A stretch of DNA of 64,000 bases from Parcubacteria group bacterium GW2011_GWA2_43_13 (GTDB lineage: Bacteria; Patescibacteriota; Patescibacteriia; UBA9629; GWA2-43-13). Both the position numbers and the translations under genes were made by a program. Shown piece by piece: positions 12,202 through 47,200 of the stretch. Below the pieces are notes generated by a model. The model worked only from the letters and a program-made list of their open reading frames with translations. It searched no databases and was not told where the DNA came from. Where the stretch lies: positions 1,925 to 65,924 of the forward strand of contig LCFM01000004.1 in the NCBI GenBank assembly GCA_000999025.1, in the 5' to 3' direction. The number at the start of each line of letters is the position of its first letter. The stretch's first letter is position 1.

Positions 12202-12399
12202 TTACTCCAATAAATAATCCCACTCCGGTTGCCACGCCCTGTTATTTCGCCAATCCTCGACAAATGCTTGTCCCCATGTTTTACCTTTCAACAAAACATC
12301 AAGCGCAAGTTGCGGGGCTTGATGCGCGACAATGGCAACGCTCTTTCCATTATAGTTCTGTTTAAGAAATTCCAGAAAATTTGCCATGCGCTCTTGCAC
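12202..12399 (-). pseudogene. C-terminal fragment of a histidine-phosphatase (phosphoglycerate-mutase-like) gene
   Basis: 65 aa ending ..SVAIVAHQ..; lacks the N-terminal RHG catalytic region. Confidence 0.35.
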
Positions 12400-12531: not shown

Positions 12532-13095
12532 TTATCTTTTTACACCCTCACAGCCCAATAAAAAATCTTTTAATTCCGCAAATGGTTTTATTTGTACATA
12601 CGTTTTTTGGTCGTCTTCCTCGCTCAATTGCGCCCGTGTAACGGTATATCCCTTTGGGATAAAAATCTTGTCCCATCCATACCCACGTTCACCAGCTGGA
12701 ATTTGAGATATCTCTCCATCCATGCTCCTTTCAAATAATTTTAGAATATTTCCATCGTAATACCCAAACACACATCGCGCAACAGCGTTACGCGTCTTTC
12801 CATGTACCATGGAACAGATAGTTTCAAACGGCAGTTCTTCAACAAAAAACCGAATAAAAGGGCCGGGCAACCTGCCAAAAGCCACAAACTCAAGCGAAAC
12901 ATCTTCAACAATTACCGGACTTTTAATTTTCTCGTATGCTTGCCGCACTTTGTGTTCAACAATTTCTTTAAGATCTAATGATTGTATCTCGTCTAAATCA
13001 AGTTTTAGGTGTTTTACAGGAAACCCCAAATATTTCGCCAAATAATCGGCCTTATTCTGGTTGCCTGTTATAAATGTAACATCTCTATTCTCCAT
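12532..13095 (-). CDS. rdgB: non-canonical purine NTP pyrophosphatase (Ham1/RdgB/ITPase)
   Basis: MENRDVTFITGNQNKADY N-terminus and Ham1-family motifs; the ORF-track N-terminal extension to 13281 crosses a repeat/poly-C tract and is probably not translated. Confidence 0.8.
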   Translation of the reverse strand: MENRDVTFITGNQNKADYLAKYLGFPVKHLKLDLDEIQSLDLKEIVEHKVRQAYEKIKSPVIVEDVSLEFVAFGRLPGPFIRFFVEELPFETICSMVHGKTRNAVARCVFGYYDGNILKLFERSMDGEISQIPAGERGYGWDKIFIPKGYTVTRAQLSEEDDQKTYVQIKPFAELKDFLLGCEGVKR

Positions 13096-13142
13096 AAGAA
13101 TAAACAAATGCATTAATTCGAGAATTACACAAAATACCCTCA

Positions 13143-13215
13143 ATGGTGCGGTGTCTGTTTGAAAATATCCGAACGGAACTGGCTGGGCTCGGCGGGAGGA
13201 ATCCCCCCCACCCCC
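13143..13215. repeat. ~75-bp repeat with homopolymeric C tract (copy 1)
   Basis: cggtgtctgtttgaaaatatccgaacggaactggctgggctcggcgggaggaatccccccca-cccccccc; second copy at 13965-14040. Confidence 0.7.
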
Positions 13216-13545
13216 CCCTTCCGCCCGCCTCGCCTTGAACCGGAGCGGAAAGGACGATTTCAAGTTTTTCTTTGGCGACAAGCCCTAAACCAAATCCTTT
13301 TTCTTCTCCTCAAATTCTTTCTTATTTATCTCACCCTTCGCGTATCGCTCTTTCAAAATTTCAAGTGGCGATTTTTCGCCATTGTGAGTGCCGCGAAATT
13401 GGCTCGTAAGCCACATGATAAGGGCAACAATACCCGCGATGATGAGCCCCCACCAAAGGAACATAAACATCCAGCCGAAACCGTCAAAAGGGAAAAATCC
13501 AAAATTCATCATAGTGTTTGTTGAATTATTAAAGGTCAATATTAC
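13215..13545. repeat. ~300-bp direct repeat carrying the SHOCT gene (copy 1)
   Basis: near-identical to 16185-16465, including upstream cttccgcc..cgccttg and the whole small ORF. Confidence 0.8.
13285..13512 (-). CDS. SHOCT-domain small membrane protein (copy 1)
   Basis: 75 aa; TM helix and C-terminal ILKERYAKGEINKKEFEEKKKDL; near-identical to 16231-16458. Confidence 0.7.
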   Translation of the reverse strand: MMNFGFFPFDGFGWMFMFLWWGLIIAGIVALIMWLTSQFRGTHNGEKSPLEILKERYAKGEINKKEFEEKKKDLV

Positions 13546-13868
13546 CCAAAAACTAATACTTTATCCGAGGTCTCGACCATCTTGAGCAAGTCGGACATCG
13601 TGGACACTGCGCACACTTTGCTTTCTTCTTTCCCACGTATTTTGAGACAACTGGCGCATGCGTATATTTCGCCTTTCAATCCTTTGAATTCCACTACTTT
13701 TGCCGAGATATCAAAATACTCGCTATCAAGAATGGTATCAAGCTCCGAACCCTCACTCATCAAAAAAACCTCTACTTGATGGTTGGCTTTGAGCGCGGTA
13801 ATTCCGAATCGGAATGTATTCCACGCATGTTCGGGTTTGTTAGATTGCAAGATAATGCCAAGTTTCAT
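13542..13868 (-). CDS. DsrE/DsrF-like family protein
   Basis: 108 aa with a Cys-containing peroxiredoxin/DsrE-like pattern; tentative. Confidence 0.35.
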   Translation of the reverse strand: MKLGIILQSNKPEHAWNTFRFGITALKANHQVEVFLMSEGSELDTILDSEYFDISAKVVEFKGLKGEIYACASCLKIRGKEESKVCAVSTMSDLLKMVETSDKVLVFG

Positions 13869-13964
13869 AAAGTTATTTTATTAATTCAAGTATACAATAC
13901 ATCAATGTATCTCTAAAATCAACGAAAAGAAAGGATGGCCTTTCTTTTTTGATTCGGTGTCTGT

Positions 13965-14040
13965 TTGAAAATATCCGAACGGAACTGGCTGGGCTCGGCG
14001 GGAGGAATTCCCCCCCAACCCCCTTTTTTTGCCCACCTAC
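13965..14040. repeat. ~75-bp repeat with C/T homopolymer tract (copy 2)
   Basis: cggtgtctgtttgaaaatatccgaacggaactggctgggctcggcgggaggaattcccccccaaccccctttttttg. Confidence 0.7.
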
Positions 14041-14097
14041 TGGAAACTCCCAGCGATTTTTTCGGACGGCGGGGCCTCAAATTGGGTAGTGGGTGGG

Positions 14098-14442
14098 TTA
14101 GTTTTGATGATTGATTAGATACTCTTTGATTCTACTATTATCTTCACTTTCCTTGTCGCCCTTGTAATACAACTCAATAAATTCAATGTGTAGAGTTTGT
14201 TCAAAATATGCGTAAATGATCCGCAGTGATGCCCCCTTCAAGTATCTACAAAATAACCGAGCTTTAACAATATGTAAAACTTCGGTTTTCGTGATGACAT
14301 TAAAATGTTTGCTGTTGCCTAGAGGAACAGCAGAAACTACATTGCGAAATTCCTGCAGATCGTCGTGGAGTGATTTGTATTTTTTGGCAAGCCGTTTGAG
14401 TTCTTTTTGAAATTCCGGCACCTCATCAAAGTTCATCGTCAT
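14098..14442 (-). CDS. RelE/ParE-family type II toxin
   Basis: 114 aa; ..SLRIIYAYFEQTLHIEFIELYYKGDKE C-terminus typical of RelE/ParE; overlaps the upstream antitoxin gene by 17 nt. Confidence 0.55.
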   Translation of the reverse strand: MTMNFDEVPEFQKELKRLAKKYKSLHDDLQEFRNVVSAVPLGNSKHFNVITKTEVLHIVKARLFCRYLKGASLRIIYAYFEQTLHIEFIELYYKGDKESEDNSRIKEYLINHQN

Positions 14443-15196
14443 AATTTCTTACGGAGTATCTTTCATCACGGTAAAAGACGCTTTCGTAAGAAAGCGGTTT
14501 GCCGTCCTGCGCGGATTTCCACGGTATATCTTCATGCGAGTAATTTTCTATCTCGGCGGCGTTTTTATCCGAAAGACGAGCTAAGACATCGTCAATGTGT
14601 TCTATTTCGCGCGCCGAAAGTATATCGAGATTTGGACGCTTCCGTGGCAGGTACTTCTTTTGCAAATACTTGAAATACTGGCTTTTAACGGCCTCCAACT
14701 CGCCTTGCTCCTGCATTTCCTTCATTATTGAACCGAGCTCAACAGAGGTGGGGCCGTGATGGTTTTTAATATACGTCGCGCCCATCAAGTTTTCTTCAAA
14801 TTTTTCGTAGTAATCAAAATCAATAAAATAAAGTAATTTATGGAGCACGGTCTCACCTACATTTGGCTTACTGCCTACTTTCCCCAAAACATAGAGTAAA
14901 ACCTGCTTGAACTTCTCAAGGTTCTTTTCTGTAACACGAATCTGTAAGTCATCGGATTTTTTTGCTGACCCTTTCTCAATAGTTACAACTATTTTCGTAT
15001 CTTCTTTTTCCTCCAAAAAGTTTTCAAATGGAATATCAAAAACTTCCGCCAATTTCTTTGCCTCGGTAATAGTTAAATCCCGCTCCCCACGTTCAATTTG
15101 TATGTAGGTTGGGCGAGAAATACCAAGCTCTGACGCAAGATATTCCTGCGTCATATTACGCTTGCCACGTTGCTGTTGGATAAATTTTGAAAGCAT
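14426..15196 (-). CDS. XRE-family HTH protein with C-terminal Panacea (SocA-like, DUF4065) domain; putative antitoxin
   Basis: HTH QEYLASELGISRPTYIQIERGERDLTI; C-terminal KLLYFIDFDYYEKFEENLMGATYIKNHHGP fits the Panacea domain; translationally coupled to the toxin. Confidence 0.6.
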   Translation of the reverse strand: MLSKFIQQQRGKRNMTQEYLASELGISRPTYIQIERGERDLTITEAKKLAEVFDIPFENFLEEKEDTKIVVTIEKGSAKKSDDLQIRVTEKNLEKFKQVLLYVLGKVGSKPNVGETVLHKLLYFIDFDYYEKFEENLMGATYIKNHHGPTSVELGSIMKEMQEQGELEAVKSQYFKYLQKKYLPRKRPNLDILSAREIEHIDDVLARLSDKNAAEIENYSHEDIPWKSAQDGKPLSYESVFYRDERYSVRNYDDEL

Positions 15197-15293
15197 AGTT
15201 ATTTTGAAAATATTTCCCACACATGCAGGCCGAAAAAATAATAAGAGATTAATTCAGCTCCGACTGCTATAATTGTGATAATGAGCGGGGTTT

Positions 15294-15620
15294 TTAGTTT
15301 TTTTTTACTTCATTGAGTACTTCTCCCTCATTTTCAGCTGATTGATCAAGATTTTCCTGATGGAGAGTGCCTCCAACAACACGATTTGTAATTTTTCCAT
15401 TATTTTTTGCGGTTTGTCTACCGCCAATCTGAGTTAGGTCTGTCGCATTATGAGAGATTTCTCCACCCGAGGATTCTTGTTCTACATTTTGCATATGAAT
15501 TTTTGTCGCGTTAGTGGTTACAGACGCTCCCGGAGGTGTGTTGATTTCAATTTTATTATTTACTCCGTCGGGAGTCATAAAAATTATGGTATCGTGTTTA
15601 TATTCAGACATAAATAGCAT
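15294..15620 (-). CDS. hypothetical protein
   Basis: 108-aa ORF, no recognisable motif. Confidence 0.3.
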   Translation of the reverse strand: MLFMSEYKHDTIIFMTPDGVNNKIEINTPPGASVTTNATKIHMQNVEQESSGGEISHNATDLTQIGGRQTAKNNGKITNRVVGGTLHQENLDQSAENEGEVLNEVKKN

Positions 15621-15673
15621 TGTTTAAGATTATAATACTTACACTTCTATCGTAAGCGGTGTAGGGATTCTTG

Positions 15674-16021
15674 TCAATAGGAATGTAAAGAAGTTATACA
15701 CTCTCGCCTACAAGTGGGCAGGGTTATCTCGCCCAAAACCTGGGTGATGATTTCTTCTTCTTTTTCTACTTCGGCAACAAGGTGTTTTTGGATTTCCAAC
15801 GGAATAAAAGGAATTTTGAGAGAGGATAGATATTCAAAGCTCACGCGTGGTAATTGAGTGCCTTTTAGTCCTTTCAGCACTTCCGCGTTGAATTCATCGT
15901 TTCGTAGTATCAAAGCATATAATCCGGCAATGATTTTTTCAGAATTACTTCTCAAGACAAGAATATCTGTTGAACAAATACCATCTCTATCGGCAAACCA
16001 AACTTTGTTGAGGTTCGGCAT
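15674..16021 (-). pseudogene. hsdS: fragment of a type I R-M specificity subunit (HsdS) gene
   Basis: 115 aa with LKGTQLPRVSFEYLSSLKIPFIPLEIQKHLVAEVEKEEEII, the HsdS conserved-region signature; far too short to be functional. Confidence 0.55.
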
Positions 16022-16184
16022 TAACTTGCCATTGCCTTTCTAAAAGACGCCACCCAAGCCGAAAAATACGCAGAGCAAAAATCCGCCATAGGCGGACGGG
16101 ATTTTCTCAAAAAGATTGGTTCGAACTTCCGCATTGCCGAGCGGACGCTTTCGTTCCCCCTCAAAAATGCTTGGATTCTCGCGG

Positions 16185-16465
16185 GGAAATACCATCACCC
16201 CTTCCGCCTCGCCTTGCTTGCCTGCCCGACCTAAACTAAATCCTTTTTCTTTTCCTCAAATTCTTTTTTATTTATCTCACCTTTCGCGTATCGCTCTTTC
16301 AAAATTTCAAGTGGCGATTTTTCGCCATTATGAGTGCCGCGAAATTGGCTCGTAAGCCACATGATAAGCGCAACAATACCCGCGATGATGAGCCCCCACC
16401 AAAGGAACATAAACATCCAGCCGAAACCGCCAAAAGGAAAAAATCCGAAATTCATCATAGTGTTT
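16185..16465. repeat. ~300-bp direct repeat carrying the SHOCT gene (copy 2)
   Basis: near-identical to 13215-13545. Confidence 0.8.
16231..16458 (-). CDS. SHOCT-domain small membrane protein (copy 2)
   Basis: 75 aa, a few substitutions relative to copy 1. Confidence 0.7.
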   Translation of the reverse strand: MMNFGFFPFGGFGWMFMFLWWGLIIAGIVALIMWLTSQFRGTHNGEKSPLEILKERYAKGEINKKEFEEKKKDLV

Positions 16466-16471
16466 GTTGAA

Positions 16472-17170
16472 TTATTTTTTTAATCTCCTTATTTCTACTT
16501 CTATTTCTTTCACTACTTCTTTATTTTCAATGTCCCCATCTAAACTAAAAATAATGAATACCTTGCCTTGATATTTTTTCTCAAAATCAAAAAAATTTGT
16601 TTTCATTCTTTCGGATACAGAATAATTACCAAAATTTGCTTGTGCAGTTACTGGTTTAATTTGTATGCCAAAAGCTTTTTCGCCTACAAATCCTAAATAA
16701 TCTATATCGCCAGCATGATCAAGATCGTTATCACTTTTAACGAATTTTACTTCTGGAAAATATTCAGCCAGTCCATCATTGACGACAGATTTTTCACGAA
16801 TAAAACCATCATACGTACGATGTATTGTCAGGTTATAAATATAATCTTTGCAATCTTGTAGCGATAATTCATTGAAAGCGGCTTGCCATTCTGGTATAAC
16901 AACCTCGATAATTTTTTCATATAATCTTTCGCCCAATTCCATTAAAATTTCTGGTGTAATTTTTATCGCATTTTTGTTTTCGGTAAATGCTTTCTCAAAA
17001 TACCACTGTTCCCATTCATCTATGGTTTTAGGCTGACATTCTCGTATGAGCATCATGACAGCACCAACTTTATTCGGACGAGATAATTGATACGTTTGGC
17101 AAGCGTAATTTAATACTTTTTCTTTTTTACCAAAGTCCTTAGAATATTTTTTAGATTTTTTTACCGGCAT
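16472..17170 (-). CDS. putative type II restriction endonuclease, cognate of the adjacent methyltransferase
   Basis: 232 aa from MPVKKSKK; overlaps the 3' end of the MTase gene by 20 nt; acidic D/E-K-like segments (DLDHAGDIDYLGFVGEKAFGIQIK); family not recognised. Confidence 0.4.
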   Translation of the reverse strand: MPVKKSKKYSKDFGKKEKVLNYACQTYQLSRPNKVGAVMMLIRECQPKTIDEWEQWYFEKAFTENKNAIKITPEILMELGERLYEKIIEVVIPEWQAAFNELSLQDCKDYIYNLTIHRTYDGFIREKSVVNDGLAEYFPEVKFVKSDNDLDHAGDIDYLGFVGEKAFGIQIKPVTAQANFGNYSVSERMKTNFFDFEKKYQGKVFIIFSLDGDIENKEVVKEIEVEIRRLKK

Positions 17171-18467
17171 AATTTTGAGATAAATTAATAAATTTTTCTT
17201 TATATTTGTAATCCATTTCATTATCAACAAAAACATAGCCCCCTCTTATTAAATGAGCGTTTAGAAAAGTTTTATTTTGAAGATATAAATAACATAACAA
17301 ATTATTTCTTTTGTCATATTTTAAATCATCAAACTTTAAAAAAACCCGTTGTTTGTTGGTTTTATTTAATAAAAATTCCTTGGCATCTTCACATTTTTCT
17401 GGGTTAGTTTTTATACCTAATAATTTTATCATTAAACCATTATTTAACTTTATCGTCTCCGGATCTATTATTTCTTGTACTGTATAAAATTCATCTCTCT
17501 GCGCTTTATTGCTATCTATTTTTGAACCGAATTGCAATTTCTTTGGGTCTATCTTTCTGTCCATTTTTATAGGGTCTTTAAAAACATAAGGTAGGTTGGA
17601 AATTTCGTTTTCATAATTATTTTCGTTGCTCTCTTTATCTATAAAATTGACAGTTGAATTATCAAGTATTCTACCAGCATCAAATCCTAATTTTCCCTTA
17701 ATAATATCTCTAAACTTGGGATTAATTTCGTAACCTACCGAATTGCGATTTAAATTTCTTGCAGCTAACGAAGTGGTGCCGCTCCCCACAAACGGATCAA
17801 GTACCACATCACCAACAAAAGAAAACATTTTTATCAATCTTTTCGGCAATTCCTCCGGAAACATGGCAATATGCCCATCTTGCCTAACGCCGTTAAAATT
17901 CCAATGCCCTTGGAAATATGTATTCCATTCTTCTTTGGTAAGTTTTGAGAGTTCTTTTAATTCCAAATTTATTTTAGGGGACACTCCATTTTTTTTAAAT
18001 ATTAAAATAAACTCATAATCAAGTTTTATTATCCCATTTCGGGGGTATGGAAATGATCCCATTATTGTGGCACCGCCTGTTGTGTTCATGGTAGTTGATT
18101 TTTGCCAAATAATTGCCCCCATGTAATCGAGCCCTATGACTTCGCAAAATTTAATTATTTCTGTTCTTATCGGAATTACCTTATATCTTCCATAATAAAC
18201 AGAACGGGCAAATTGATCTCCAATATTGACACATAAACGACATCCATTTTCTAAAACCCTATAACACTCTTGCCAAACTAAGTTAAGATTATTTATATAA
18301 TCTTCATAATTATCATTGTAACCAATTTGATCCTCTGTCCCATAATCCTTCAATTGCCAATACGGTGGCGAGGTCACCACAAGATGAACGGATTTGTCTT
18401 GCAACTCCGCCATATTGCGAGAATCGCCAATGATAATTTTATGGTTTGTTTTTATACTTTCCTTCAT
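17151..18467 (-). CDS. beta-class N4/N6 DNA methyltransferase fused to a C-terminal SNase (thermonuclease)-like domain
   Basis: motif IV VVTSPPYW followed by motif I DPFVGSGTTSLAAR; C-terminal ~110 aa (KLLGIKTNPE..AKEFLL..RVFLKFD..LLCYLYL..LNAHLIRGGYVFV) aligns by eye to the SNase OB-fold, with Lys in place of the Ca-binding Asp. Confidence 0.75.
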   Translation of the reverse strand: MKESIKTNHKIIIGDSRNMAELQDKSVHLVVTSPPYWQLKDYGTEDQIGYNDNYEDYINNLNLVWQECYRVLENGCRLCVNIGDQFARSVYYGRYKVIPIRTEIIKFCEVIGLDYMGAIIWQKSTTMNTTGGATIMGSFPYPRNGIIKLDYEFILIFKKNGVSPKINLELKELSKLTKEEWNTYFQGHWNFNGVRQDGHIAMFPEELPKRLIKMFSFVGDVVLDPFVGSGTTSLAARNLNRNSVGYEINPKFRDIIKGKLGFDAGRILDNSTVNFIDKESNENNYENEISNLPYVFKDPIKMDRKIDPKKLQFGSKIDSNKAQRDEFYTVQEIIDPETIKLNNGLMIKLLGIKTNPEKCEDAKEFLLNKTNKQRVFLKFDDLKYDKRNNLLCYLYLQNKTFLNAHLIRGGYVFVDNEMDYKYKEKFINLSQNYAGKKI

Positions 18468-18504
18468 ACCAACAACCTTATCTTAATCTCCTAAACTTTC
18501 AAAT

Positions 18505-18591
18505 CGGAGAGGGAGGGATTCGAACCCTCGAGGGAGTTGCCCCCCTAACATCTTAGCAGGATGCTGCCTTCAGCCGCTCGGCCACCTCTCC
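18505..18591 (-). tRNA. tRNA-Ser(GCU)
   Basis: reverse complement GGAGAGGTGGCCGAGCGGCTGAAGGCAGCATCCTGCTAAGATGTTAGGGGGGCAACTCCCTCGAGGGTTCGAATCCCTCCCTCTCCG; cloverleaf with long variable arm and anticodon GCT; no encoded CCA. Confidence 0.85.
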
Positions 18592-18749
18592 ACGTCGGAA
18601 TTGCACTCCAGCTTTCGTCCCGACACAATGTCAGGACTACAGCTTCTGTGAATTCCTCCGTACAACAACACAAAACCTTCTCATCAAAACACGTCCGCAG
18701 TATAGCTATTTTACTCTATCCAGTCAATTAAATAAAACACATATGAAAT

Positions 18750-19370: not shown

Positions 19371-19389
19371 AAATGTATGAGTGTCTGTT

Positions 19390-19432
19390 GCTCTCGTCGT
19401 TCAACGGATAGGACACGAGATTGCGTTCCCTG
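19390..19432 (+). pseudogene. partial tRNA-like duplication (5' half)
   Basis: GCTCTCGTCGTTCAACGGATAGGACACGAGATTGCG.. mirrors the acceptor, D-arm and anticodon 5' strand of the downstream tRNA, but the anticodon stem cannot close. Confidence 0.45.
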
Positions 19433-19443
19433 TCATAATATCT

Positions 19444-19515
19444 GCTCCCATCGTTCAATGGATAGGACGCAAGATTGCGGATCTTGTAATCCAAGTTCGA
19501 ATCTTGGTGGGAGCA
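19444..19515 (+). tRNA. tRNA with anticodon GCG (Arg by anticodon)
   Basis: GCTCCCATCGTTCAATGGATAGGACGCAAGATTGCGGATCTTGTAATCCAAGTTCGAATCTTGGTGGGAGCA folds as a 72-nt cloverleaf: 7-bp acceptor, anticodon loop TTGCGGA, T-loop TTCGAAT. Confidence 0.7.
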
Positions 19516-19727
19516 TATATCATGGCAATAATATCTCGCTACCCTACAGGTGATAATTGAGGTTCTCACCCTATTGAGGGCGATCACCCTGTATAGGATG
19601 AGATTCCTCACGAGAGCAATGGATACTTTTAAAAAACAGAAACAGGCCGCTTCTTGCGGCTTTTTCTGTATCTTGGCTCATTGCCCCAATAGCAAAATAC
19701 ACTCCAATATGATATACAAAAAAGGAT

Positions 19728-37412: not shown

Positions 37413-37481
37413 TGTAGAGACGGGGTTAACCCCGTCTCTACACATGATGAGATAGCCAATCAGCGGAAACCCCGTCTCTAC
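37413..37481. repeat. palindromic element family A (two units)
   Basis: gtagagacggggttaaccccgtctctac..aaaccccgtctctac; overlaps the stop codon of the upstream gene. Confidence 0.6.
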
Positions 37482-40400
37482 GCGGAAGTGTCTTGGCTTT
37501 GAGGTACAGATTCTTTCGTTTCTGGGGCAGAAGGCACTTCTTGAGTGCTACTTGTTTCTGTATCTGATGAAGCTGGCTGTGTGCTCTGGGTGGTTTGATT
37601 TTCCGCGACTGTTCCGATTTGCTCTGCTGTCTCGGCTCCTTGGCGAAGAATGGTACCTTGTCCCTCTTGAGTTTTCGCTTGACTGTCTTTCATAATCTCT
37701 TGCGTTCTTCGAGTTGTTGTCACTTGCACACGTGATTGCCGTGTCGCTCTATCACTTGCCTGTCTTCGTGTTGTTTGAGCTTCTTTTTTCTCCTGTTGCA
37801 ATGCCGCGGCCCCTGTCGCCTGCACTGTTTCACTCATCTGTTCTGCTCCTTGCATAACTTGTTCTGCCACATCTCGTAATGCGTCACCCACATCAGCAGA
37901 GCCGGTCTGCGCTTCCGATGATGAAACGCTCGGACTCCCTATTTCTTGATCAACTTGCTCTGAATCAAGACGAGCGCGGAATGCGGATTGTTGCTTTGCC
38001 GAAGCAGGTGGCGAAAGCGTACCGGATTTAAGCACTGATTGCATAAAACGCATTGACGGATCCTGGCTTTGCTCAACCATGGTTTTCATTGCATCGTTCA
38101 GCTGATACGTCGCGTCGTCTTTCTTTCCATATCGTGTCGCGTTGACCAATGATGTGCTTAAAAATTCATCTGCGATTATTGCTTCAGGCGGTTCTGCTCC
38201 ATACGTACCTTTATATTCTTCTGTTATTTTCTGCTGTACGCCAGCTTTTTGATCACCCAATGCATTCCAAAATTGCATCAGCACATCTTGAGGCAATTTC
38301 CCAACAAAGCTGTGCATTTTTTCTTCAAGCCCTGTAAGATATTGTTCTTGGCCCCCACGCTCGCCTTGATGTAAGTTTGCATCTGTATTAACAATCCGAA
38401 CAGTGCCTGATTTTTCCAGCCCTTGCCGAGCCAGCGCGCGTTCCGCTTCGCTATATCCTTGAGATGCCATCTTCTGGTCAAGCGCGTTGAGAAGTTTTTC
38501 TAATGTCTGCTGATCCTGTGGGTTTGCATCTTGAACATGAAGGGTCGCGCCAGCAACATCTTTCATGCCAGCGACATGTAATATATCTTTATCAAGATAT
38601 AATTTCGGGTTGCGCGTCTCTAACCCTTTTTGCTGTTGAGTAATCACTGAATCAACTCCACCAATTCTGTCTTGCGGTTTTCGTGTATCTTCAATCTGAA
38701 TGCTTTCGGCATTTTTAAGATACTGTTCAAACGCCTGAAGTTGCGGGCCAACAACCCCTTGCTCTTGCGATTGCTTTAATAAATCCGGTAAAAACTTTGC
38801 AATATCACCGCGTGACAACATGTCCTGATTTTTAGCAATACCCCATTTTTCTTTATCAATCCGCAGTGCTGGATTTATATTGTTGTTGCGCCCCTGCAAT
38901 CCTTGCAGTTTATCCTGGGCTCGACGTTGATCATCCTGCACCTGCATCAATGCTTCACCGCCTTCACCACGATCTAACAAATCACGCTGTTGTTGTATTG
39001 CTTGATCTGCCTCTTGTTGCGCGCCGTCTATTTGGCTTGATATGGTATCTTTTTCCTGCATCTGCTGAACAAATGTCTGCGCTCCGATTTCTAATCGCTG
39101 TTTGCCCTGATCCTGAACAATCACATTCTGCGCCGCTATTGTGACATTACCCATGTTTCCACCCACCACCCCCTTCTCAACTTTTTCTGTTTTCTCTTTC
39201 TCTTCTCCATCAAGACGAAACATATCAAAACGACCAGATGTAGGTGACGCCTTACTGTCCGCAAAGGTTTTACTGTTTTCTAATCTACGTTGCGTCGTCT
39301 CAATTGCTCGCACATCCTCATCTTTCAAAGCAGAATTCTTCACATACTTCCCAGTAGCGTCCTTAAGATACTTCCCTGTAGGATCTTTTTGATAAATGTC
39401 ATGATTATCTTTATCTAAATTGACTGCGGCTTTTTGAAGATTAGTGCCTCGTTGAGCCACTTCGTGTAATCGCTTAATCCCTGTTAATGCTTCTCCCTGT
39501 TCGTCAGCGCTTCCAGTCTCGGTGATGTCTATTAACTTCTGCATCATCGCGCGGAGTTGTTCTGAATCTTTGATATCATCAGGATCCGATACATCTTGCG
39601 CCCACTTTACCGCATCGGACCCTTCTAATGTATGGTATGTCTCAGCAATAGCCGCCTCTTTCTTTGCCCTCCCCATTGGAGTAATTTTCTTCCCACTAGC
39701 AGTACGCGCGATAGTACTTTGCATCTTCGCACTTTTTAGTGCCTGAACTCGCTCCGTTGCTTTCTTTTTATATCCAGCTCTGTTTTTTGACATCGCAAGC
39801 CCAGTACGCTCTGATACGGCACGAACTCCGGTAAACTTTGCAAGTTGCCCCCAACCACCACGCGCGCCAGCGACATTATCAACCCCTTTCTGAAGCCACT
39901 TTGCACGGGCAAGAGTCCCTCCTGCAACTTTAAATGGCGCTTTAAGCGTACCTTTCAACGCCCTCCCTCCCCCCTTCAACACCGCCCCTCCCGCGCCCTG
40001 TAACTTCCCCATCATTGTGCCGGCGAATTTTCCGGCAATACCGGATGTTTGACCTGCGTATTTTAATGCCATCCATAACACGCCAATAGAAATCACAAAA
40101 CTCAACATGTTCACAGGGGACCCAACTGAAGACACTCCTGCAGATAAATCACCTGTTGCTCCTGTTATAGAATCAAACGTACTATGCGACGTCCCCATGA
40201 TTGCAAACGAAAGCCAGAGAAAAAATGCTAAAATCGGGCCCATGGGAACATATTTGCCAAATTCAGTCATCCACTGGCTTGCATATTTTTCACCAAACGG
40301 CACTGCCCGCATCACAAAAAATACCGGTGAGGTAATTGTTAAAAACCATAAAATAACAATACGAGTAACAAAAACCAAAAGATATACAAGAACTGTAACA

Positions 40401-41056
40401 ATTGCGACAATAAGCATGACTATCGCCAAAAGATACGCGCCTAAAACTTCCCCGCTATTCCCTCCTACAGCATTGGAAAATTGTATCATCTCTCTAAGCC
40501 CCAGCGCTTCTGTCATATTTCCTGCGGCGGCACTTTTGTACGCGTTAAAAAACATCATAGTAAACACATGCGCAAAATCAATCGCAAGCCCTACTATCGT
40601 TTTGCTGAAATTAACCAATATCGCGGCAAGCAACACTTTGCCCAGCATTGATTTGTAACTATATTTTTGGACATTAAAGATCGTTCCAAACGCAATCATC
40701 ATCATAAAAATAATAAACCCGACATTCAATATATCTCTCATCACAAGCCACCCCTTAATAACAGCTGGTTGATAAATAATATTATTGTATGAAGCAATCT
40801 GAATGAGAAAAGAAACTATAATAGCAAGTATTTTCCCTAATAACCATACAATACTTCCCAAGGTGGCATTTATAATACCATTAATTATTTCAGCTACCAA
40901 AGCATGCGCTATCGCAGGAGTTGCAAAAAAGATAGCCACGAAAAATACCGCCACTAAACACAACACAGCCGCTTGTGTGCGACTTAAAAATGGCTGTTGA
41001 TTTTTTATACAAAAAAATTCTTTCATCCGGAATGAGATAATTCTCGCTTCATACAA
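37478..41056 (-). CDS. VirB6/TrbL-like polytopic T4SS membrane protein with ~800-aa disordered C-terminal extension
   Basis: 1192 aa; ~8 TM helices in the first ~400 aa; the rest is a Q/E/T/A/K-rich low-complexity region. Confidence 0.5.
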   Translation of the reverse strand: MYEARIISFRMKEFFCIKNQQPFLSRTQAAVLCLVAVFFVAIFFATPAIAHALVAEIINGIINATLGSIVWLLGKILAIIVSFLIQIASYNNIIYQPAVIKGWLVMRDILNVGFIIFMMMIAFGTIFNVQKYSYKSMLGKVLLAAILVNFSKTIVGLAIDFAHVFTMMFFNAYKSAAAGNMTEALGLREMIQFSNAVGGNSGEVLGAYLLAIVMLIVAIVTVLVYLLVFVTRIVILWFLTITSPVFFVMRAVPFGEKYASQWMTEFGKYVPMGPILAFFLWLSFAIMGTSHSTFDSITGATGDLSAGVSSVGSPVNMLSFVISIGVLWMALKYAGQTSGIAGKFAGTMMGKLQGAGGAVLKGGGRALKGTLKAPFKVAGGTLARAKWLQKGVDNVAGARGGWGQLAKFTGVRAVSERTGLAMSKNRAGYKKKATERVQALKSAKMQSTIARTASGKKITPMGRAKKEAAIAETYHTLEGSDAVKWAQDVSDPDDIKDSEQLRAMMQKLIDITETGSADEQGEALTGIKRLHEVAQRGTNLQKAAVNLDKDNHDIYQKDPTGKYLKDATGKYVKNSALKDEDVRAIETTQRRLENSKTFADSKASPTSGRFDMFRLDGEEKEKTEKVEKGVVGGNMGNVTIAAQNVIVQDQGKQRLEIGAQTFVQQMQEKDTISSQIDGAQQEADQAIQQQRDLLDRGEGGEALMQVQDDQRRAQDKLQGLQGRNNNINPALRIDKEKWGIAKNQDMLSRGDIAKFLPDLLKQSQEQGVVGPQLQAFEQYLKNAESIQIEDTRKPQDRIGGVDSVITQQQKGLETRNPKLYLDKDILHVAGMKDVAGATLHVQDANPQDQQTLEKLLNALDQKMASQGYSEAERALARQGLEKSGTVRIVNTDANLHQGERGGQEQYLTGLEEKMHSFVGKLPQDVLMQFWNALGDQKAGVQQKITEEYKGTYGAEPPEAIIADEFLSTSLVNATRYGKKDDATYQLNDAMKTMVEQSQDPSMRFMQSVLKSGTLSPPASAKQQSAFRARLDSEQVDQEIGSPSVSSSEAQTGSADVGDALRDVAEQVMQGAEQMSETVQATGAAALQQEKKEAQTTRRQASDRATRQSRVQVTTTRRTQEIMKDSQAKTQEGQGTILRQGAETAEQIGTVAENQTTQSTQPASSDTETSSTQEVPSAPETKESVPQSQDTSA

Positions 41057-41142
41057 CTATTATATCACAAATATAAAAAAAGCAGGTACACAATAATACC
41101 CCGCCCTTGCCCTCCCCTCTATAGGAAGCATCCCATAAAACG

Positions 41143-41199
41143 CAGAGACGCGACGATGCCACGTCTCTAACAAAGACGCCCCATCGGGGCGTCTCTACA
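41143..41199. repeat. palindromic element family A (two units)
   Basis: gcagagacgcgacgatgccacgtctct..aagacgccccatcggggcgtctctac. Confidence 0.6.
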
Positions 41200-41211
41200 C
41201 TATTCTGTATT

Positions 41212-44200
41212 CTACTCCTGAATCTTGACTGGTAAAGAAAAGAACGTGTTATCGTTCTGATCGCAGTCCGATCCCCAATTCCCCGCCCCACTGGCTGGTT
41301 CCGAGATATTGTCTGCGCCATTGCACCATCCCCAGTTATCAGTCACACGAATGCGAATCTTAATATCCGTACCAACAACACCTGAACCATATACATGCGT
41401 GTACCGATGTGGGCTTGCCATATCGCGGCGCTGATCAATGGCAAGATTTGTCTGGCGGGTAAAACTGCCATCTCCCCAGTCAATTTCTATGGCCTTAATC
41501 GGCAAATGATCAATAGGAACATTTGTTGTAAATGCCAACTGAACTGATCTTTGCTCGCCGATGCTAACCACAGGAGTAGGAGTAATAGCAGATTTTTGGC
41601 CAATCTTCACCCCATTCGCCTGCACTTCTAAAATTTGAGGAGCATAATACTTACATGTCCCTTTCCCCTTATCACAAGAAGAACCCAACGCGCAAGAAGA
41701 ATCCAACGCGCAAGGAGAACCCAACACGTCGGAGCAGAACTGCCGATTAGAGGAACAAACCAACATACCACGCTTATCCACTACTCCCCCTTCAGAGCGA
41801 TACCCTTGAATACCATCATCCCACTTAAATCGCTCGAATATCTTACTAAACACACTGAAAATTCGATTTAATCCAGTAGATGCAAGCGTTGTAGATGCAA
41901 GCGTTGTGGAAGGCGCCACAATAGTTGTTGGCGTACATACTCCTGGTGGTTCATCTGCTGGTTTCGGCGGTGTTGATGTCTCGCAATTGCTTGAAATTTT
42001 ACATGATTTCCCAAGCTTATCTTTTGCGCCCTTCGTACACACATTCCCTGCGGGACATGATCCGCCTGGGCAATCTTTTGGCGTAAAACACACACTTCCG
42101 TCTCGCGCGCCACCAACACAGGTATTAATGGTTGCATCATACGCAAATGCCATATTGCCCCTGTGCGTTTCTGTGCATAATTTTGCCTGCTCGTTGTTTT
42201 GCGTATCTCCACTGCTAAACAACAATAATGGACTTTGAATAATTTGATCAGGCACAAAATCGTTATTTGTATCAAGCGTCCTTAGAATATCTGACGGCCG
42301 ATCAATAGCAGGCGCGGCGCTGAACGGCAAACACTGTGTGTTCACGCCAAATTGAACAGGTTTTTCAAGCGTATACGTTCCCTGCATCCGCGACGCCCAT
42401 GCCGCATTTGTTCCATCATCATCAACTGTTTTAACCAATTCCGCGCAATATAATGGACGTGAAATGCGCTGTACCTTCTTTAATGTGGAAACACCTTCAA
42501 GGACAAGGAAACGATCCATCACCCTATCCCGTACACCAGCATGGGTAGTTAATTTAGTAAAACCATCAAATACCGCATCAGAACTGCCGGTACAGTATGG
42601 TTCTGCACAATATGATTCCCGCGGGTCATATCCAGAATGATCATCATCATCACAGAAATTAGTATCGTCAGACCATTCATAAATAGCCGCCTTATGGTAT
42701 ACCTCTAATAATTTATCTGTATAACACGAAGAATCTGAAGAACTTGCGCAATCACTTGATGAAGAAAATTGCAGGGTTTTAATCCGGTTATCATCTGATG
42801 ACTCTTTTCCTGTCACTTCTAAACATCCGCCTTTGACCTCGCCGTCGTCAGCACCTGTCGACTCCACTCCAATCCGTCCGCTGGCGTTAGCGGTCAAATG
42901 TGGATTAAACACATTCACTGAATCACCTAATAGCCAATCATCTTCTGATAAACTGTAAAACGCTGGTTTAGGATCGCTTGCAATAGCAAACTTCCAGCAT
43001 CCGGCATCTTTATCAAGCGGGTTCCCTCTAAACGCAACGCACACAAAACGAGGCACATCATATCTTGGCGGAAGTGGCTTTTCTTTTGCCACGGCGCAAT
43101 GGTATACAGGTCCCGGACCTTGGTAGCCAATATTTTCCGGCTTGGTGAATATATTGGTTTCGTCTTTAATCACATCAACCGGATACCATTGAATACACAC
43201 CGCAGGGTTTGCCGGATCACGCTCCATGCACAACCCTTTCCATCCGCGCACATACTGGCCTCTATCATCTATAGCATCGCACTGTAAAGCAGATGATGCA
43301 GGATACAGCCGGCATGACGGAGCGGAATCAAGCAACGGTCGCTCGGTCTCTTTTGCCACGCGCAGTACCGGCCGAATTTGAATATCATCAAACACAACTG
43401 ATCCTGTAATATCCTGCATAAGGTCAATACGCAAGGAACGCGTTGTGCTGTGCGTTGTGAAATCTTTTGCAAAAAACTGCCACTGATTCCCAAGAGTAAA
43501 ATTCGATGTATCCACAGCAAGTACAGAACCAACTGCTCCGCTATTCCCGCTCTCCGGCGCTCTATCATTATTAAATTGAACAACTTTCACCAACGTCTGC
43601 GCTCTATCAGTTCCAACAGTGCTCTGGTCAAGGTTTCGCGTATTCACCCACCCTGAAACCACATACGTAGTATTCCCCCGAATGTTTGACACGCGCGTGG
43701 ACATGCCGGTTTGCTCTCCTTCAGAAGACGCGACAGTTTGAAGAAACGCGGCAATATCCACATCAGATCCGCGAATCAAATCACACTTCCCGTCGCACAC
43801 ACTTTGCTCATACCAGATGATATCTGAATACTCCAAACGCGATGTATTGGAAAATACCACATCATCAATTATTAATGCAGTAGCGCCTGAATCAGCGCGT
43901 TGGAACCTCACCGCGAGTTTGCGCGATTCTACTGAATCTACTTTTAAAAATGTGATGGTAAATGTTTTCCATGTATCGCCAGTTGATGATACATCTAATC
44001 CTGAAACAAAAGCTCCCAATCCAGTGCTTCCGGTATCATAACTATTTTTAAGTTCATCTTCATTAGGATTTTTATGGAGTTCAACCTTTAATGTGCCTGT
44101 GCCTTTTATTTTTCCTTTTATAGAATATGACTCACCTGCTTTCATCTCATCTAAAACCATTGCCACTTCCGCTTTCTCTACCCCGCACCGCGCGCCCAAA

Positions 44201-47200
44201 CCCGAACAATCAGTGTCCTTTGTACACACTGCGCCTTTGTTTGTTCCTGCGTCACCGTCACATACCCTTTCAGATGAAGTAATTTTTCCAATCTGAAACG
44301 CCTGCCCGCCATCTGAAGAAACAAGCTTGCAGTTCGTGCACCCAACGCTTTTATACCAATTCACAGGTCCGGTTGGTTGGGATGACGCGTTCGGCATCTG
44401 GTTTAATACATTATTCGGTACATTCTGTTCAAAATTAAACACCCGAGTCAAACCGTTATATGGCACAAAACGAGTATTGCGCAAAGAAAACACTCCTTCT
44501 GTCTTTTTTATAACATCAACAATCACAAATGTATTACTAAAATCGCCACGAGGGACATCAATGATATGCGAAAATGATTTCTTTTCCGACGGCGCAAGCG
44601 TAATGGTTTCTGTTGTTGCCGTTGTGTCTAACGCCTTCTCATCACCAGCCCTCCACCCTTCTCGCGTTACATCATTCGGCGCGATGTACTTGCCTGCGGC
44701 GTCTTTACCAGCATAGAAGAAACGATACCGTATATCAATACTTCCAGGCGCGCCTGCGTATGATTGCGCTTCACCGGTAAATACAAATTTTCCAGGCACT
44801 CCAAAAAGTTGTATATCAGCGCTGTATCGGTTTTGAAGAATCTCACGAGATGAAGCATCAGATGTTACCGACCCGATACGCAAGGATCGGACACCGCTTT
44901 TTACCTCTTTGGTATCAAGCGAACACGACCCCTCGCACGGTTTTTGAATAATCCAGCCATCAGGAAAATTATCCTCGTTTACATCTTTTTCAAAATCAAA
45001 GTTCAGTACACTTGCTGAATCACCCTCAACGCTCATAGCGTTTGGATGATAACTTCCCGAAATTGTTTGACCTGTATTAAATACCAGCCCTGGTCGAGCG
45101 AGCCCGCTTCTGCGCGTAAATTCTTCAAAATCACCTCCTCCTGTAAATCCGGTACCAATAGAATCAGCAATTGCCGGTTGCGCATAAATAAATGACCGGG
45201 AAATATCACTATCATCAACGATGTCCGTACATTCGCCATTCTCGCCCCAGTCGCGGCACGCAAAACGATCAAAACACACCTGTTTCTCTTTTCCATCCGC
45301 GCCAATAGTAGTCGCGCCTGAACGGCACTCCAGCCATTCGCCACATACTCGATCATTTTCCACCCGAACCGATTCCGCCTGCCTTTGCGCGCCTTCTGTT
45401 GCCACGCGTTCCCAGTATTCTTTCCGATTTTCATTTTCAAACGGTAATGGAGCGATAAATGTTCGGAATGCACGGCATGATCCAAAACTCAAATCAATAT
45501 CAGTGCACGCCGCTCCATTTTGAAGGCCAGTACCAAGAGTAATAAATTGACTGGTAAGATCTTTTTCTTCCCGCACTTCAGTACATGACGCCTCTTGTTG
45601 AGGACACAATCCGGCATATCCGTCGCTTGGTTGCGTGTACTCATTAGATGAACGTGCGCCTATTGGCTGAAGAGTAGCAACAGGACATGGCGAAGATGTT
45701 CCTTTTATCAGCCACGCATCGCCATTAAACTCACACACCTGTCCTTGAGGCGCTTTAAATAACGCAGTCCCGCTCTCCACAAGTTTGCCGTCTTGATTCT
45801 TTTTCATCACAGTATACTGCTGGCACATAGAACTCTTTTCACTGCACACAATGCGGTCATACTGATCAGGCCTCTCAATCAACGCAACGGGATTGAATCC
45901 AACAAGCGCGGGACTCAACGCTCCATCTGACTGTTGTTTATTTTCTATATTTGGTTGCGCATACAGCATACATCCCATTTCTGATGATTGGCACTGCGCT
46001 TCCGGCGTCACTTTCACAACTTCAACAAAATCCTGTGGTATAAGGGTCAGCCGATCCTCGCCTTCAAAGTGAACTTCTTCTTCAATGGCAGTATTATTAT
46101 TGGTATTAATAAGCGCTTCGCATCCCACATCACTTTCAGGGCATGGTTGGCTGAATTTATACAGATACACATTCGTTTTTGCGCTTACCCCCGGCATGCG
46201 CGTTGAATACGCGGAACATCCTTGATATGCCTGATCAATGCATATCTTCGGAACAGGAGACCACGAATCCCGCACCCGATAAAACACATCAGTGCGAGTG
46301 CTCATTTGAATCTGATCAATCAATAACCGCGCTGAACCTGCATCCGGATATGAAAAATACATAACAAATTGATTGACGCTCTGCATCCCTTCATCAGATA
46401 ATGCATTTTTATACACCAGCGGTCCAAGCGTCGCGGTATGCCATTCATTATCAGGAATCAGCAGTGTCTCTGACACATCTGTTTCAGCAGGGCCGTACGG
46501 AAGCGTAACACGCGGATACTGATCAATGGAGAGAAATGACGAGACAGCGCTGGCAGAACTTATTTTATACAGTATGGTTACGGAATACTCCCTGCCTGTT
46601 TGTAATATACTGGAAAATCCGGTTGATGGAAGTTTTGCCCCACCAGTTCCTGATGGAAGAGCCAATGACTGCGTTTCCCCATCCGACTCTGTGGCAAGCA
46701 TTCCGCCTTCCCATGGCGATGTTCCTGTATTGAAATCGCTTTTAAAAATCATTTGAACATTTCCGGCTTTAGGCCCTTCATATCTTCTGCACATATTGTC
46801 CGTGGCAGAACATTTCGCGCTTGCGGACGGCAGAATATTCATACGCTCGCCTGTGGTTGTTCTCCGTAAAAGACGGCAATCATTTGAAACCGGTACGGTT
46901 TTACTTTGAAGGATAAACACGTTTCGACCTTGAGAATCAATAAATTCACGGCAATCCGGATTGGTTGCTGTAGTATCAGGACTGCACACTGCCTGCGTTG
47001 CAACAGTATCAGCGCACACTGTTCCTTCATCGCGCATAGCAGGATTTGTGCATGGACTGTTATTGATATTGCTCTGTAACAAATCAACAGCCCGCAGTTG
47101 GAAGCCGAAAATATCAGCGCCTTCCCAGACAAAATACCGTTTCTTTACTCGATCCTCACTATCCGCAACTGTTTGGCTTACATTAGCGCACCATCGTGTA

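Follow-up and report, generated by a model that had tools for sequence, protein, structure and literature searches.

In the 64,000-nt stretch of contig LCFM01000004.1 analysed here (hereafter the window, from Parcubacteria group bacterium GW2011_GWA2_43_13), a 5.4-kb interval between a tRNA-Ser(GCU) gene and a Ham1/ITPase gene is filled with defence and addiction genes, gene fragments and direct repeats, which raises the question of how such an island came to be assembled in a bacterium of the candidate phyla radiation (CPR), whose genomes are tiny. The island itself is ordinary in kind, being a typical strain-variable defence/addiction island. Its short repeat belongs to a very large family of dispersed elements, which an initial annotation of the sequence had missed; it is this family, and not a mere duplication on the spot, that accounts for how the island is built. 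The island is probably a decayed stack of cassettes that accreted at tRNA-Ser(GCU) and is now reshuffled via the elements at the cassette boundaries. The element/recombinase system described below appears undescribed: in the searchable literature, where subscription journals are largely uncovered, the core sequence of the element occurs in no paper, and no description of serine-recombinase/tRNA-Ser cassettes in CPR was found.

The boundary element and an associated recombinase

The two direct repeats reported by the initial annotation are both real, and each proved to be delimited differently from what had been proposed. The short repeat (given as 75 bp; 13144-13220 against 13950-14026) spans 77 nt at 91% identity and has a 32-nt core that occurs twice in the window, against zero occurrences expected by chance; it is the 3' part of an element of about 135 nt. 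The long repeat (given as ~300 bp; 13284-13530 against 16230-16476) runs for 247 nt without gaps at 96% identity, its similarity continuing with indels into 13219-13283 and 16196-16229, and it is composed of a gene for a SHOCT-domain protein together with the 5' part of the same element. The nearly invariant block that defines the element family is present in two copies in the window, (ii) and (iii), and in a third, (i), in sibling contigs; copy (ii) holds it as ...CCCAGCCAGTTCCGTTCGGATATTTTCAAACAGACACCG.

The consensus of the element is ~135 nt long and has a sharp 3' end, ...ACACCGCCA. Its last 42-45 nt are nearly invariant (block ..CAGCCAGTTCCGTTCGGATATTTTCAAACAGACACCG(CCA)), and its 5' part varies, being pieced together from GC-rich hairpin modules. 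A 31-nt core, GTTCCGTTCGGATATTTTCAAACAGACACCG in the orientation of the gene strand, was found exactly in at least 120 metagenome stretches from unrelated sites and in at least 119 stretches of species-dereplicated genomes, more than 240 loci overall. The hosts include Kaiser-, Vogel-, Wolfe-, Yanofsky-, Davies-, Falkow-, Colwell-, Peregrini-, Ames-, Lipton-, Sung-, Doudna-, Jorgensen-, Nomura-, Harrison-, Chisholm-, Gottesman-, Roizman- and Yonathbacteria, WWE3 and others, with host loci ranging from 32 to 66% G+C and with distinct right-hand contexts for 111 of 121 element copies. A few core-bearing bins are labelled as other phyla and may be mis-binned. Within 63-70% GC DNA, L069 (245-1319) and L153 (1457-2531) contain a 0.8-kb cassette of 36% GC, carrying a VOC/glyoxalase-type gene with inverted elements on either side, and L067 has a solo element insertion of ~195 nt in an intergenic spacer of 66% GC; these three contigs are chimeric unless the element can pass from one phylum to another. 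A small natural inversion across a stem was also observed in one element copy of L132 (4334-4494), in which an 11-bp inverted repeat (GGCGGGCGGAA/TTCCGCCCGCC) encloses a G-rich loop that reads as its reverse complement.

Several established identities were considered for the element and rejected. Viral contigs (IMG/VR) contained zero matches to the 31-nt core, on which a phage origin was discarded. A structured non-coding RNA was discarded on the variable 5' part, the absence of any Rfam match at the gathering threshold or at E <= 10 other than chance-level ones, and the absence of a significant fold (RNA fold z of 0.02 and -0.96 for the consensus). The 77-nt repeat does not behave as an integron attC site (DNA fold z from -1.43 to +1.35 over three copies and both strands), and no tyrosine integrase (IntI) was seen, leaving the locus outside the definitions of an integron and of a cluster of attC sites lacking an integron integrase (CALIN). 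Nor does the element qualify as a MITE (miniature inverted-repeat transposable element), its consensus having no convincing terminal inverted repeat and the junctions read having no target-site duplication.

The neighbourhood of the element was surveyed in 239 element-bearing loci (1.42 Mb). Genes for tRNA-Ser account for 105 of the 204 tRNA genes in these loci (51%; anticodons TGA, GGA, CGA and GCT), followed by tRNA-Arg (34 of 204), and the motif GTT[AGT]G[GA]AA stands after 34 of 104 tRNA-Ser genes versus 2 of 98 other tRNAs. The commonest layout in the family is a tRNA-Ser, 0.4-2 kb of genes and a co-oriented element; the window shows the same layout, every one of its element copies sharing the minus strand with tRNA-Ser(GCU) at a distance of 2.3-5.4 kb.

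A large serine recombinase (domains Resolvase, Recombinase and Zn_ribbon_recom) gave tblastn matches in 52 loci, its copies sharing 87-94% protein identity across bins. In 13 loci the recombinase start codon lies 114-117 nt past the element 3' end on the same strand, and in L065, L167, L075, L217, L112 and L170 the recombinase 3' end overlaps the tRNA-Ser 3' end in antisense. The ~85 nt that follow the tRNA (..CCGCCA) are identical to the ~85 nt that follow the element (..CACCGCCA), so that the recombinase gene is bracketed by long inverted repeats abutting both. Relative to tRNA-Ser, the recombinase segment has one orientation in L065, L167, L075, L112, L275, L228 and L210 and the opposite one in L202, L200, L117, L250, L181, L185 and L223, which suggests that the segment between the ~85-nt inverted repeats inverts. 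The recombinase clade comprises at least 7947 protein clusters at E <= 1e-30; sources that name these proteins do so in general terms, as 'recombinase family protein', as 'site-specific DNA recombinase' or as 'DNA invertase Pin-like site-specific DNA recombinase'.

Where a locus has multiple elements, these are tail-out inverted pairs in 26 of 34 cases, 0.8-3.1 kb apart. About 20 of the inverted pairs enclose a conserved XRE-type helix-turn-helix (HTH) gene of 65-70 aa (hereafter HTH68), located 115-155 nt inward from one element, and then cargo; across pairs the cargo includes HNH, membrane, glyoxalase-type and metallo-beta-lactamase-fold proteins, peroxiredoxin with DsrE, isochorismatase, methyltransferases and others. 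A hybrid junction between tRNA and element is shared by L187, L195 and L255, in which tRNA..CCGCCA-GTTAGGAAAT is joined to ATCCGAACGG..element with the breakpoint at the centre of the invariant block, where the crossover is accordingly predicted to lie. Separately, L050, L055, L151, L169 and L221 carry a scar, GTTAGGAAATG, after the tRNA-Ser CCA, fused to the last ~20 codons of HTH68 (..MAKIAKALGVS.EDLLK); this deletion recurs at a short shared motif.

The island in the window and its natural variants

Both repeats and the two SHOCT genes were recovered where the initial annotation had placed them, and so was every other item that it had listed for the interval, namely a restriction-modification (R-M) pair, a toxin-antitoxin (TA) pair, an HsdS fragment and a DsrE-like gene. 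The genes from 12.5 to 18.6 kb are all encoded on the minus strand. From the tRNA outward, the features are:

18504..18592, minus strand: tRNA-Ser(GCU), the island anchor (ARAGORN; Rfam tRNA, 55 bits)
17151..18467, minus strand: predicted type II DNA methyltransferase (N4/N6 class) with a C-terminal SNase-like domain (Pfam N6_N4_Mtase, E 9.5e-45; SNase, E 6.7e-6)
16472..17170, minus strand: predicted MjaI-family type II restriction endonuclease (Pfam RE_MjaI, E 2.3e-28; PADLOC REase_II, 308 bits)
16231..16458, minus strand: SHOCT-domain small membrane protein, copy 2 (SHOCT-2), core of the tRNA-proximal copy of the ~300-bp repeat (Pfam SHOCT, E 2.8e-10)
16196..16229, minus strand: remnant of boundary element copy (i), its 5' 34 nt (alignment to L001 and L004; blastn maps)
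16025..16183, plus strand: relic of a large serine recombinase, C-terminal ~53 codons, termed block X (tblastn)
15674..16021, minus strand: fragment of HsdS, a type I specificity subunit (Pfam Methylase_S; PADLOC Specificity_I)
15294..15620, minus strand: hypothetical low-complexity protein of 105-108 aa (no family match)
14426..15220, minus strand: predicted antitoxin with XRE-type HTH and SocA/Panacea domain (Pfam HTH_3, E 9e-16; SocA_Panacea, E 1e-16)
14098..14442, minus strand: predicted 114-aa toxin with a RelE/HigB2/YoeB-type fold (AlphaFold model and Foldseek)
13955..14035, minus strand: boundary element copy (ii), 3' 80 nt (nhmmer family profile, E 4.6e-26, profile positions 57-135)
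13925..13948, minus strand: terminator-like hairpin between element (ii) and DsrE, a 10-bp stem followed by a T run (consensus scan only)
13542..13868, minus strand: DsrE-like small protein of sulfur-relay fold (Pfam DsrE, E 1.1e-10)
13285..13512, minus strand: SHOCT-domain protein, copy 1 (SHOCT-1), 75 aa in public contigs, open frame to 13539 (Pfam SHOCT, E 3.5e-10)
13147..13278, minus strand: full-length copy (iii) of the boundary element (nhmmer, E 1e-39, profile positions 2-137)
12532..13113, minus strand: Ham1/ITPase, with which the housekeeping genes of the far side begin and which forms the conserved right flank (Pfam Ham1p_like, E 2e-29)

Element (iii) begins directly after the SHOCT-1 stop codon and ends 33 nt ahead of the Ham1 start codon. 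By exact-protein look-ups, about 40 contigs were obtained from the same Candidatus Jacksonbacteria (CPR) population of the Rifle aquifer (sibling assemblies GCA_001818105.1, GCA_001818135.1 and GCA_001818055.1), with flanks 99-100% identical to those of the window. Mapped on the window, these sibling contigs show at least eight arrangements, the Ham1 flank being kept in all of them. The proposal of a mobile or recombination-prone island at the tRNA is supported by these arrangements; identical content and order among relatives, the outcome that had been named as refuting it, was not seen.

In the full form (L001, L002/L003 and L005), the order is that of the window with an additional 121 nt, carrying the third short-repeat copy, directly after SHOCT-2. 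The 121 nt, which are absent from the window at 16195/16196, consist of the remaining 77 nt of element (i) and, from block X, another 44 nt. All other contigs that cross this point carry them; the joint in the window shows a microhomology of only 2 nt, and the loss may be a rare variant or an assembly error. The excision of the TA/hsdS segment between the ~300-bp repeats, which the initial annotation had predicted, was encountered in a single contig, L004 (Logan SRR6482946, 14.7 kb), which reads endonuclease-SHOCT-element-Ham1 and lacks exactly the ~3.07 kb between the repeats, with its junction within the final, identical 36 nt of the short repeat; a look-up with Ham1 for a second junction of this type gave none, and returned more contigs with a converted repeat instead.

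Other arrangements replace or convert parts of the island. In L026 and L282, from two samples, the inner genes are kept, and the 3' part of SHOCT-1 and the repeat that follows are converted to the copy-2 type. In L037, the toxin flank is joined via the repeat to Ham1 with loss of DsrE and SHOCT-1, a junction weakly supported by 127 nt at the contig end, for which repeat collapse is possible. The inner segment of L010 is 95.9% identical to that of the window, versus 100% over the adjoining 3.8 kb with the R-M pair. L030 has neither the R-M pair nor SHOCT-2; it carries an infB fragment and a different tRNA-Ser(GCU), 85% identical to that of the window, after which the inner 3 kb follow at 99.9% identity, this tRNA having exactly the place of element (i) in the full haplotype. 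L035 carries an HTH68 cassette at the locus of the window, its small HTH, queuosine-salvage and NUDIX genes being followed by a degenerate repeat, an 88% identical copy of block X and Ham1, and on the right side of L023 the flank after the last repeat differs. Two single-nucleotide polymorphisms (SNPs) that lie 39 nt apart in the SHOCT copy on the DsrE side occur among the contigs in each of the four possible combinations, and these mosaics point to conversion or exchange between the two SHOCT copies. Variant breakpoints lie at element 3' ends in L004, L037, L030, L023 and L035, and many sibling contigs terminate at repeats. L033 is without 123 nt (15380-15502), which may be a scaffold gap.

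Block X, the 160 nt between SHOCT-2 and the HsdS fragment, is antisense to the island genes and matches the recombinase of L170 by tblastn at 50% identity over 54 aa (E 5e-7). The corresponding relic in L030 extends to 90 codons (44% identity over 90 aa, E 1e-11), and its end, ..WRRRKDSN, falls within the tRNA-Ser gene, which is the canonical junction of the family. In the full haplotype, the relic is preceded by element (i) instead of tRNA-Ser; because it follows tRNA-Ser in L030 and element (i) here, the tRNA end and the element end are interchangeable at CCGCCA. The tRNA-Ser of the window ends ..CTCTCCG followed by ATTTGAAAG and has no encoded CCA, and in the sibling contigs CCA follows element (i). 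Of the recombinase unit, only the relic and one repeat arm (block X) are left in the window, which is a decayed derivative and not an intact family member, since it has no full recombinase/inverted-repeat unit and no HTH68. The search for an integrase nearby that the initial annotation had recommended was thus answered in two parts: none was found among the flanking open reading frames (ORFs) scanned (7.3-24.7 kb), and a serine recombinase relic lies in the island itself, with intact relatives beside the same element and tRNA-Ser elsewhere. The island does not conform to a classical tRNA-integrated island, having no intact integrase at its tRNA-proximal end and no distal repeat of the tRNA 3' end.

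Cargo genes and surroundings

The cargo of the island consists largely of ordinary members, by domain or fold, of known Panacea systems, RelE/ParE toxins and MjaI-type (CTAG) R-M systems. The RE_MjaI endonuclease (232 aa as called in public contigs, the open frame extending to 17236) and the methyltransferase are encoded by neighbouring, overlapping genes of the same orientation and form a predicted type II R-M system. The methyltransferase gene, whose start codon lies 36 nt from tRNA-Ser(GCU), opens the tRNA-proximal low-GC segment; the G+C content of the R-M pair is 31.5%, versus 39-46% in the surroundings. The methyltransferase differs from MjaI-type systems in its extra C-terminal SNase-like domain, a region of ~110 aa that also has a weak match to the NCBIfam thermonuclease NucI. 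The fusion is a recurrent architecture, because the full-length PADLOC type II methyltransferase model (MTase_II; 618 bits, profile positions 2-421 of 423) covers the SNase part.

The 114-aa protein beside the antitoxin has no match in Pfam, NCBIfam, PADLOC or PDB sequences, and thus its family stands apart from the known toxins in lying outside the Pfam, NCBIfam and PADLOC models. Its AlphaFold model (pLDDT 85.5, pTM 0.80) has 1wmi_A as the best Foldseek match in the PDB (E 4.6e-5, TM 0.84), and at least the top 20 matches are RelE, HigB2, YoeB and ParE-type toxins, from which a RelE/ParE fold is predicted. There are 1026 homologues, the best 120 of which (P0001-P0120) are 70-90% identical; invariant residues of the family include K45, H46, R62/R66 and Y77/Y79, and the source name is 'hypothetical' throughout. 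The toxin and antitoxin genes overlap by 17 nt, and the same pair is adjacent at four of four unrelated genomic places. By fold, domains and conserved pairing, the Panacea antitoxin and the RelE/ParE-superfamily toxin constitute a predicted type II TA pair. The pair was also considered as a regular companion of the element and rejected as such, since none of the four other TA loci is near an element or a tRNA-Ser.

The HsdS fragment covers Methylase_S profile positions 75-147 of 168, part of one domain. As the HsdS ORFs of L023 and L024 are longer (at least 196-205 aa), the HsdS of the window is a remnant, and the region around 16021-16032 is the deletion joint between it and the recombinase relic. 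Neither HsdM nor HsdR was found among the neighbouring ORFs scanned, which leaves the fragment outside a functional type I R-M system. For the hypothetical protein at 15294-15620, searches of Pfam, PADLOC and NCBIfam gave no match, and one relative (42% identical) occurs in L150. In seven other loci the element is adjoined by DsrE and SHOCT relatives that share 80-88% identity with their counterparts in the window.

The flanking housekeeping genes are SerRS, NUDIX, ComB, SET and NYN on one side and tRNA-Arg, RecG, RadA and a decarboxylase on the other. Between Ham1 and NYN, a 65-aa ORF (12202-12399) resembles the tail of a histidine phosphatase, a 78-aa His_Phos_1 protein being called there in L037, and it is probably a gene remnant just beyond the island. 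A 48-nt copy of the 5' half of tRNA-Arg (19389-19436, 79% identical) stands 6 nt upstream of the intact tRNA-Arg(GCG) at 19443-19516, a region in which both ARAGORN and Rfam call a single tRNA. Further along, 37478-54585 is occupied by three very large co-oriented ORFs of 1192, 3202 and 1222 aa.

Proposed accretion at tRNA-Ser and its alternatives

In intact loci, the canonical layout of a family member comprises tRNA-Ser, an ~85-nt inverted repeat, the recombinase with its 3' end over the tRNA and a second copy of the repeat, and then an element, the 68-aa XRE-type HTH gene, one to three cargo genes and a second element. We infer that the substrates of the recombinase are the element's invariant block and tRNA-Ser 3' ends, and that it integrates cassettes at the ...CCGCCA end of the tRNA or at the look-alike 3' end of an element present there beforehand (...CACCGCCA). 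With integration at these ends, new cassettes would enter beside the tRNA and older ones would be pushed outward. On the tRNA's 3' side, the window would then hold a stack of three or more cargo cassettes, each ending in a co-oriented ~135-nt element: cassette A with the R-M pair, SHOCT-2 and element (i); cassette B with the recombinase relic, the HsdS fragment, the hypothetical gene, the Panacea/RelE-type TA pair and element (ii); and cassette C with DsrE, SHOCT-1 and element (iii). The low-GC R-M cassette would be the newest arrival, its odd base composition being consistent with recent acquisition, and had it entered an L030-like ancestor together with SHOCT-2 and element (i), so as to separate block X from the tRNA, the full haplotype would be the outcome. 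The recombinase would meanwhile have decayed to its C-terminal relic in the window genome. The present variants, that is, loss of B and C, loss of C, conversion of SHOCT and element, and replacement of the B allele, may have arisen via homologous recombination between the repeated boundary units or via a recombinase supplied in trans.

Several observations weigh against such accretion. No partial tRNA-Ser copy exists at the distal boundary (the 22-nt tRNA 3' end occurs once in the window with up to 3 mismatches allowed), so that the classical attL/attR signature is absent; the tRNA and element ends are linked by a 6-nt identity (CCGCCA) alone; and neither an intact recombinase nor HTH68 is present in the 64-kb window. 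Cassette A has no sequence clearly derived from a recombinase unit. The deletion in L004 is read from a single short-read contig across a near-identical repeat, where assembly collapse is possible, and homologous and site-specific mechanisms are inseparable because all junctions lie in identical sequence. In the wider family, only four hybrid tRNA/element junctions were seen among ~250 copies, and the system is more complicated than simple integration: the recombinase segment occurs in both orientations, inverted or re-inserted, decayed forms are numerous, and the HTH gene is in some cases fused to the tRNA flank. Furthermore, the element loci were gathered with a pattern derived from the element itself; the association statistics therefore apply to loci that have an element, and hybrid or partial sites are under-sampled.

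These points leave room for other explanations, the weightiest of which, in our judgement improbable and still a serious contender, holds that this is an ordinary recombination-prone island in which the element is a repeat of the repetitive extragenic palindromic (REP) or 3'-UTR/terminator type with no role as a recombinase site, that all of the variation is of the RecA type, and that the element occurs near tRNA-Ser and recombinases merely because foreign DNA accumulates at such hot spots. The placement of every variant junction inside sequence identical between copies agrees with RecA-type exchange, as do the mosaic SNPs, which indicate gene conversion, and the lack of a retained recombinase in the window. 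The element also resembles REP-type repeats in the GC-rich hairpin patchwork of its 5' two thirds, which is like that of bacterial interspersed mosaic elements (BIMEs), and in coming after a gene 3' end in most of its copies. However, an exact 31-nt core across hosts of 32-66% GC is unexpected for a passive repeat, and this explanation further leaves unaccounted for the fixed 114-117-nt spacing to the recombinase start at 13 loci, the identical ~85-nt sequences after the tRNA and element ends, the strong preference for tail-out inverted pairs with HTH gene and cargo (26 of 34) and the 51% share of tRNA-Ser among the tRNAs of element-bearing loci. An element moved by a DDE transposase, whether a MITE or the end of a non-autonomous transposon, would make the pairs the long terminal inverted repeats of mobile insertion cassettes and the recombinase a frequent cargo or neighbour. 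Tail-out pairs flanking passenger genes without a transposase, termini of 5'-TG...CA-3' and the ~195-nt solo insertion in L067 are all suggestive of this, and one cargo (L187) does encode an IS1595-type transposase; yet this transposase is found in one of 26 pair cargos and recurs nowhere else, target-site duplications are not evident, an element taken singly is without terminal inverted repeats, and a preference for tRNA-Ser combined with a fixed serine recombinase geometry is unexpected for DDE transposition, so we hold this explanation to be unlikely.

A purely technical origin of the apparent variation, in which short metagenome reads from mixed strains were misassembled across near-identical repeats of ~350 nt and the island itself is fixed in the population, is very unlikely. 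Many contigs do break at repeats, the L004 deletion junction is found in one Logan contig alone, the L037 junction lies within the first 127 nt of its contig, element (iii) of L001 is interrupted by a stretch of N, and the repeats of the L026/L282 lineage are almost identical, which favours collapse. Against this, L035 (flank 98.3% identical), L030, L024/L023 and L010 have unique sequence on both sides and are not explicable by repeat collapse for that reason, and the junction of the L026 type is repeated in L282, an independent sample. The four SNP combinations, moreover, must exist in the reads, because the SNPs are 39 nt apart and the assembler k was 141. Accretion of cassettes at tRNA-Ser followed by decay remains the reading that we prefer.

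Among known systems, the concept nearest to this accretion is the one described for tycheposons, where an island grows as elements integrate again and again at a tRNA and then decay. These elements integrate in stacks at tRNA genes, where newcomers push older elements outward and leave fragmented integrases and partial tRNAs (bioRxiv 10.1101/2020.12.28.424599); of the 937 integrase-carrying elements found in the same study, 501 of which were tycheposons, 910 had a tyrosine recombinase (bioRxiv 10.1101/2020.12.28.424599). As in the tycheposon islands of Prochlorococcus, or in the accretion of cis-mobilizable and integrative and conjugative elements (CIME/ICE), the CPR island is tRNA-adjacent, consists of small tandem cargo units and has strain-variable content, and as in tycheposon islands integrase fragments and repeated boundary sequences are scattered through it. 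Unlike tycheposons, the CPR recombinase is a large serine recombinase, the repeated boundary is no partial tRNA but an element in its own right, nearly invariant and with CCGCCA as all that it has in common with the tRNA end, and the units are very small and have no replication genes, being composed of ~1.5 kb of recombinase and 1-3 kb of cargo.

The staphylococcal cassette chromosome elements (SCC, including SCCmec and pseudo-SCC) use Ccr large serine recombinases at one conserved site at the 3' end of rlmH, and they form composite tandem arrays that include recombinase-less units between att-like repeats and carry R-M and other accessory cargo. The CPR system likewise combines a large serine recombinase, the 3' end of a housekeeping gene, recombinase-less units and R-M cargo. 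It differs in its target, a tRNA-Ser of four isoacceptors, in units 10-fold smaller, in a single recombinase gene between ~85-nt inverted repeats and in a ~135-nt element with a 42-45-nt invariant block. The small, co-oriented cassettes, each ending in an element that resembles a recombination site, recall integron cassettes, of which TA and R-M genes are typical cargo, and in intact CPR relatives the recombinase gene heads the array and diverges from the first cassette gene, as in integrons; in contrast to integrons, there is no tyrosine integrase and no attC-like hairpin, the elements of intact units form inverted pairs, and the array is anchored at a tRNA. With MITEs, mobile insertion cassettes (such as MIC231 of Bacillus cereus) and REP/BIME sequences, the element shares a short, non-coding, highly repeated nature, a tendency to break assemblies and a modular GC-rich 5' part, and with mobile insertion cassettes also the inverted pairs around passenger genes without a transposase. 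It departs from all of these in that no matching transposase of the DDE or REP-associated (RAYT) type was found and no target-site duplication was seen, and in its strong tRNA-Ser preference and fixed serine recombinase geometry.

For the window alone the result is modest; the recombination that the initial annotation predicted is seen in nature. We also put forward, tentatively and as an idea that may well prove wrong, that CPR bacteria share a serine-recombinase cassette system at tRNA-Ser, in which a nearly invariant ~45-nt site closing the ~135-nt element and a ~1.56-kb recombinase unit with 85-nt inverted repeats serve to capture, stack, exchange and lose small cassettes, made up of the 68-aa HTH gene with one to three cargo genes or of cargo alone. 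If this is true, the recombinase unit would possibly be an invertible module, the system would be an integron-like platform built on a different recombinase, and the island of the window would be one decayed array of it. The recombinases may suit genome engineering, being compact and having sites that can be read from natural junctions. The element would account for the frequent assembly breaks beside tRNA-Ser in CPR genomes, and it would tag an accessory gene pool (defence, TA, redox, salvage) in thousands of fragmented metagenome-assembled genomes. A study of Patescibacteria reported hundreds of genomic islands with mostly within-group transfer and named no recombinase, integrase or tRNA target (PMC12455944). 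A conserved site with its recombinase would give a concrete, testable mechanism for gene exchange in CPR, and the system could be a main route of the Patescibacteria-to-Patescibacteria gene transfer inferred by others.

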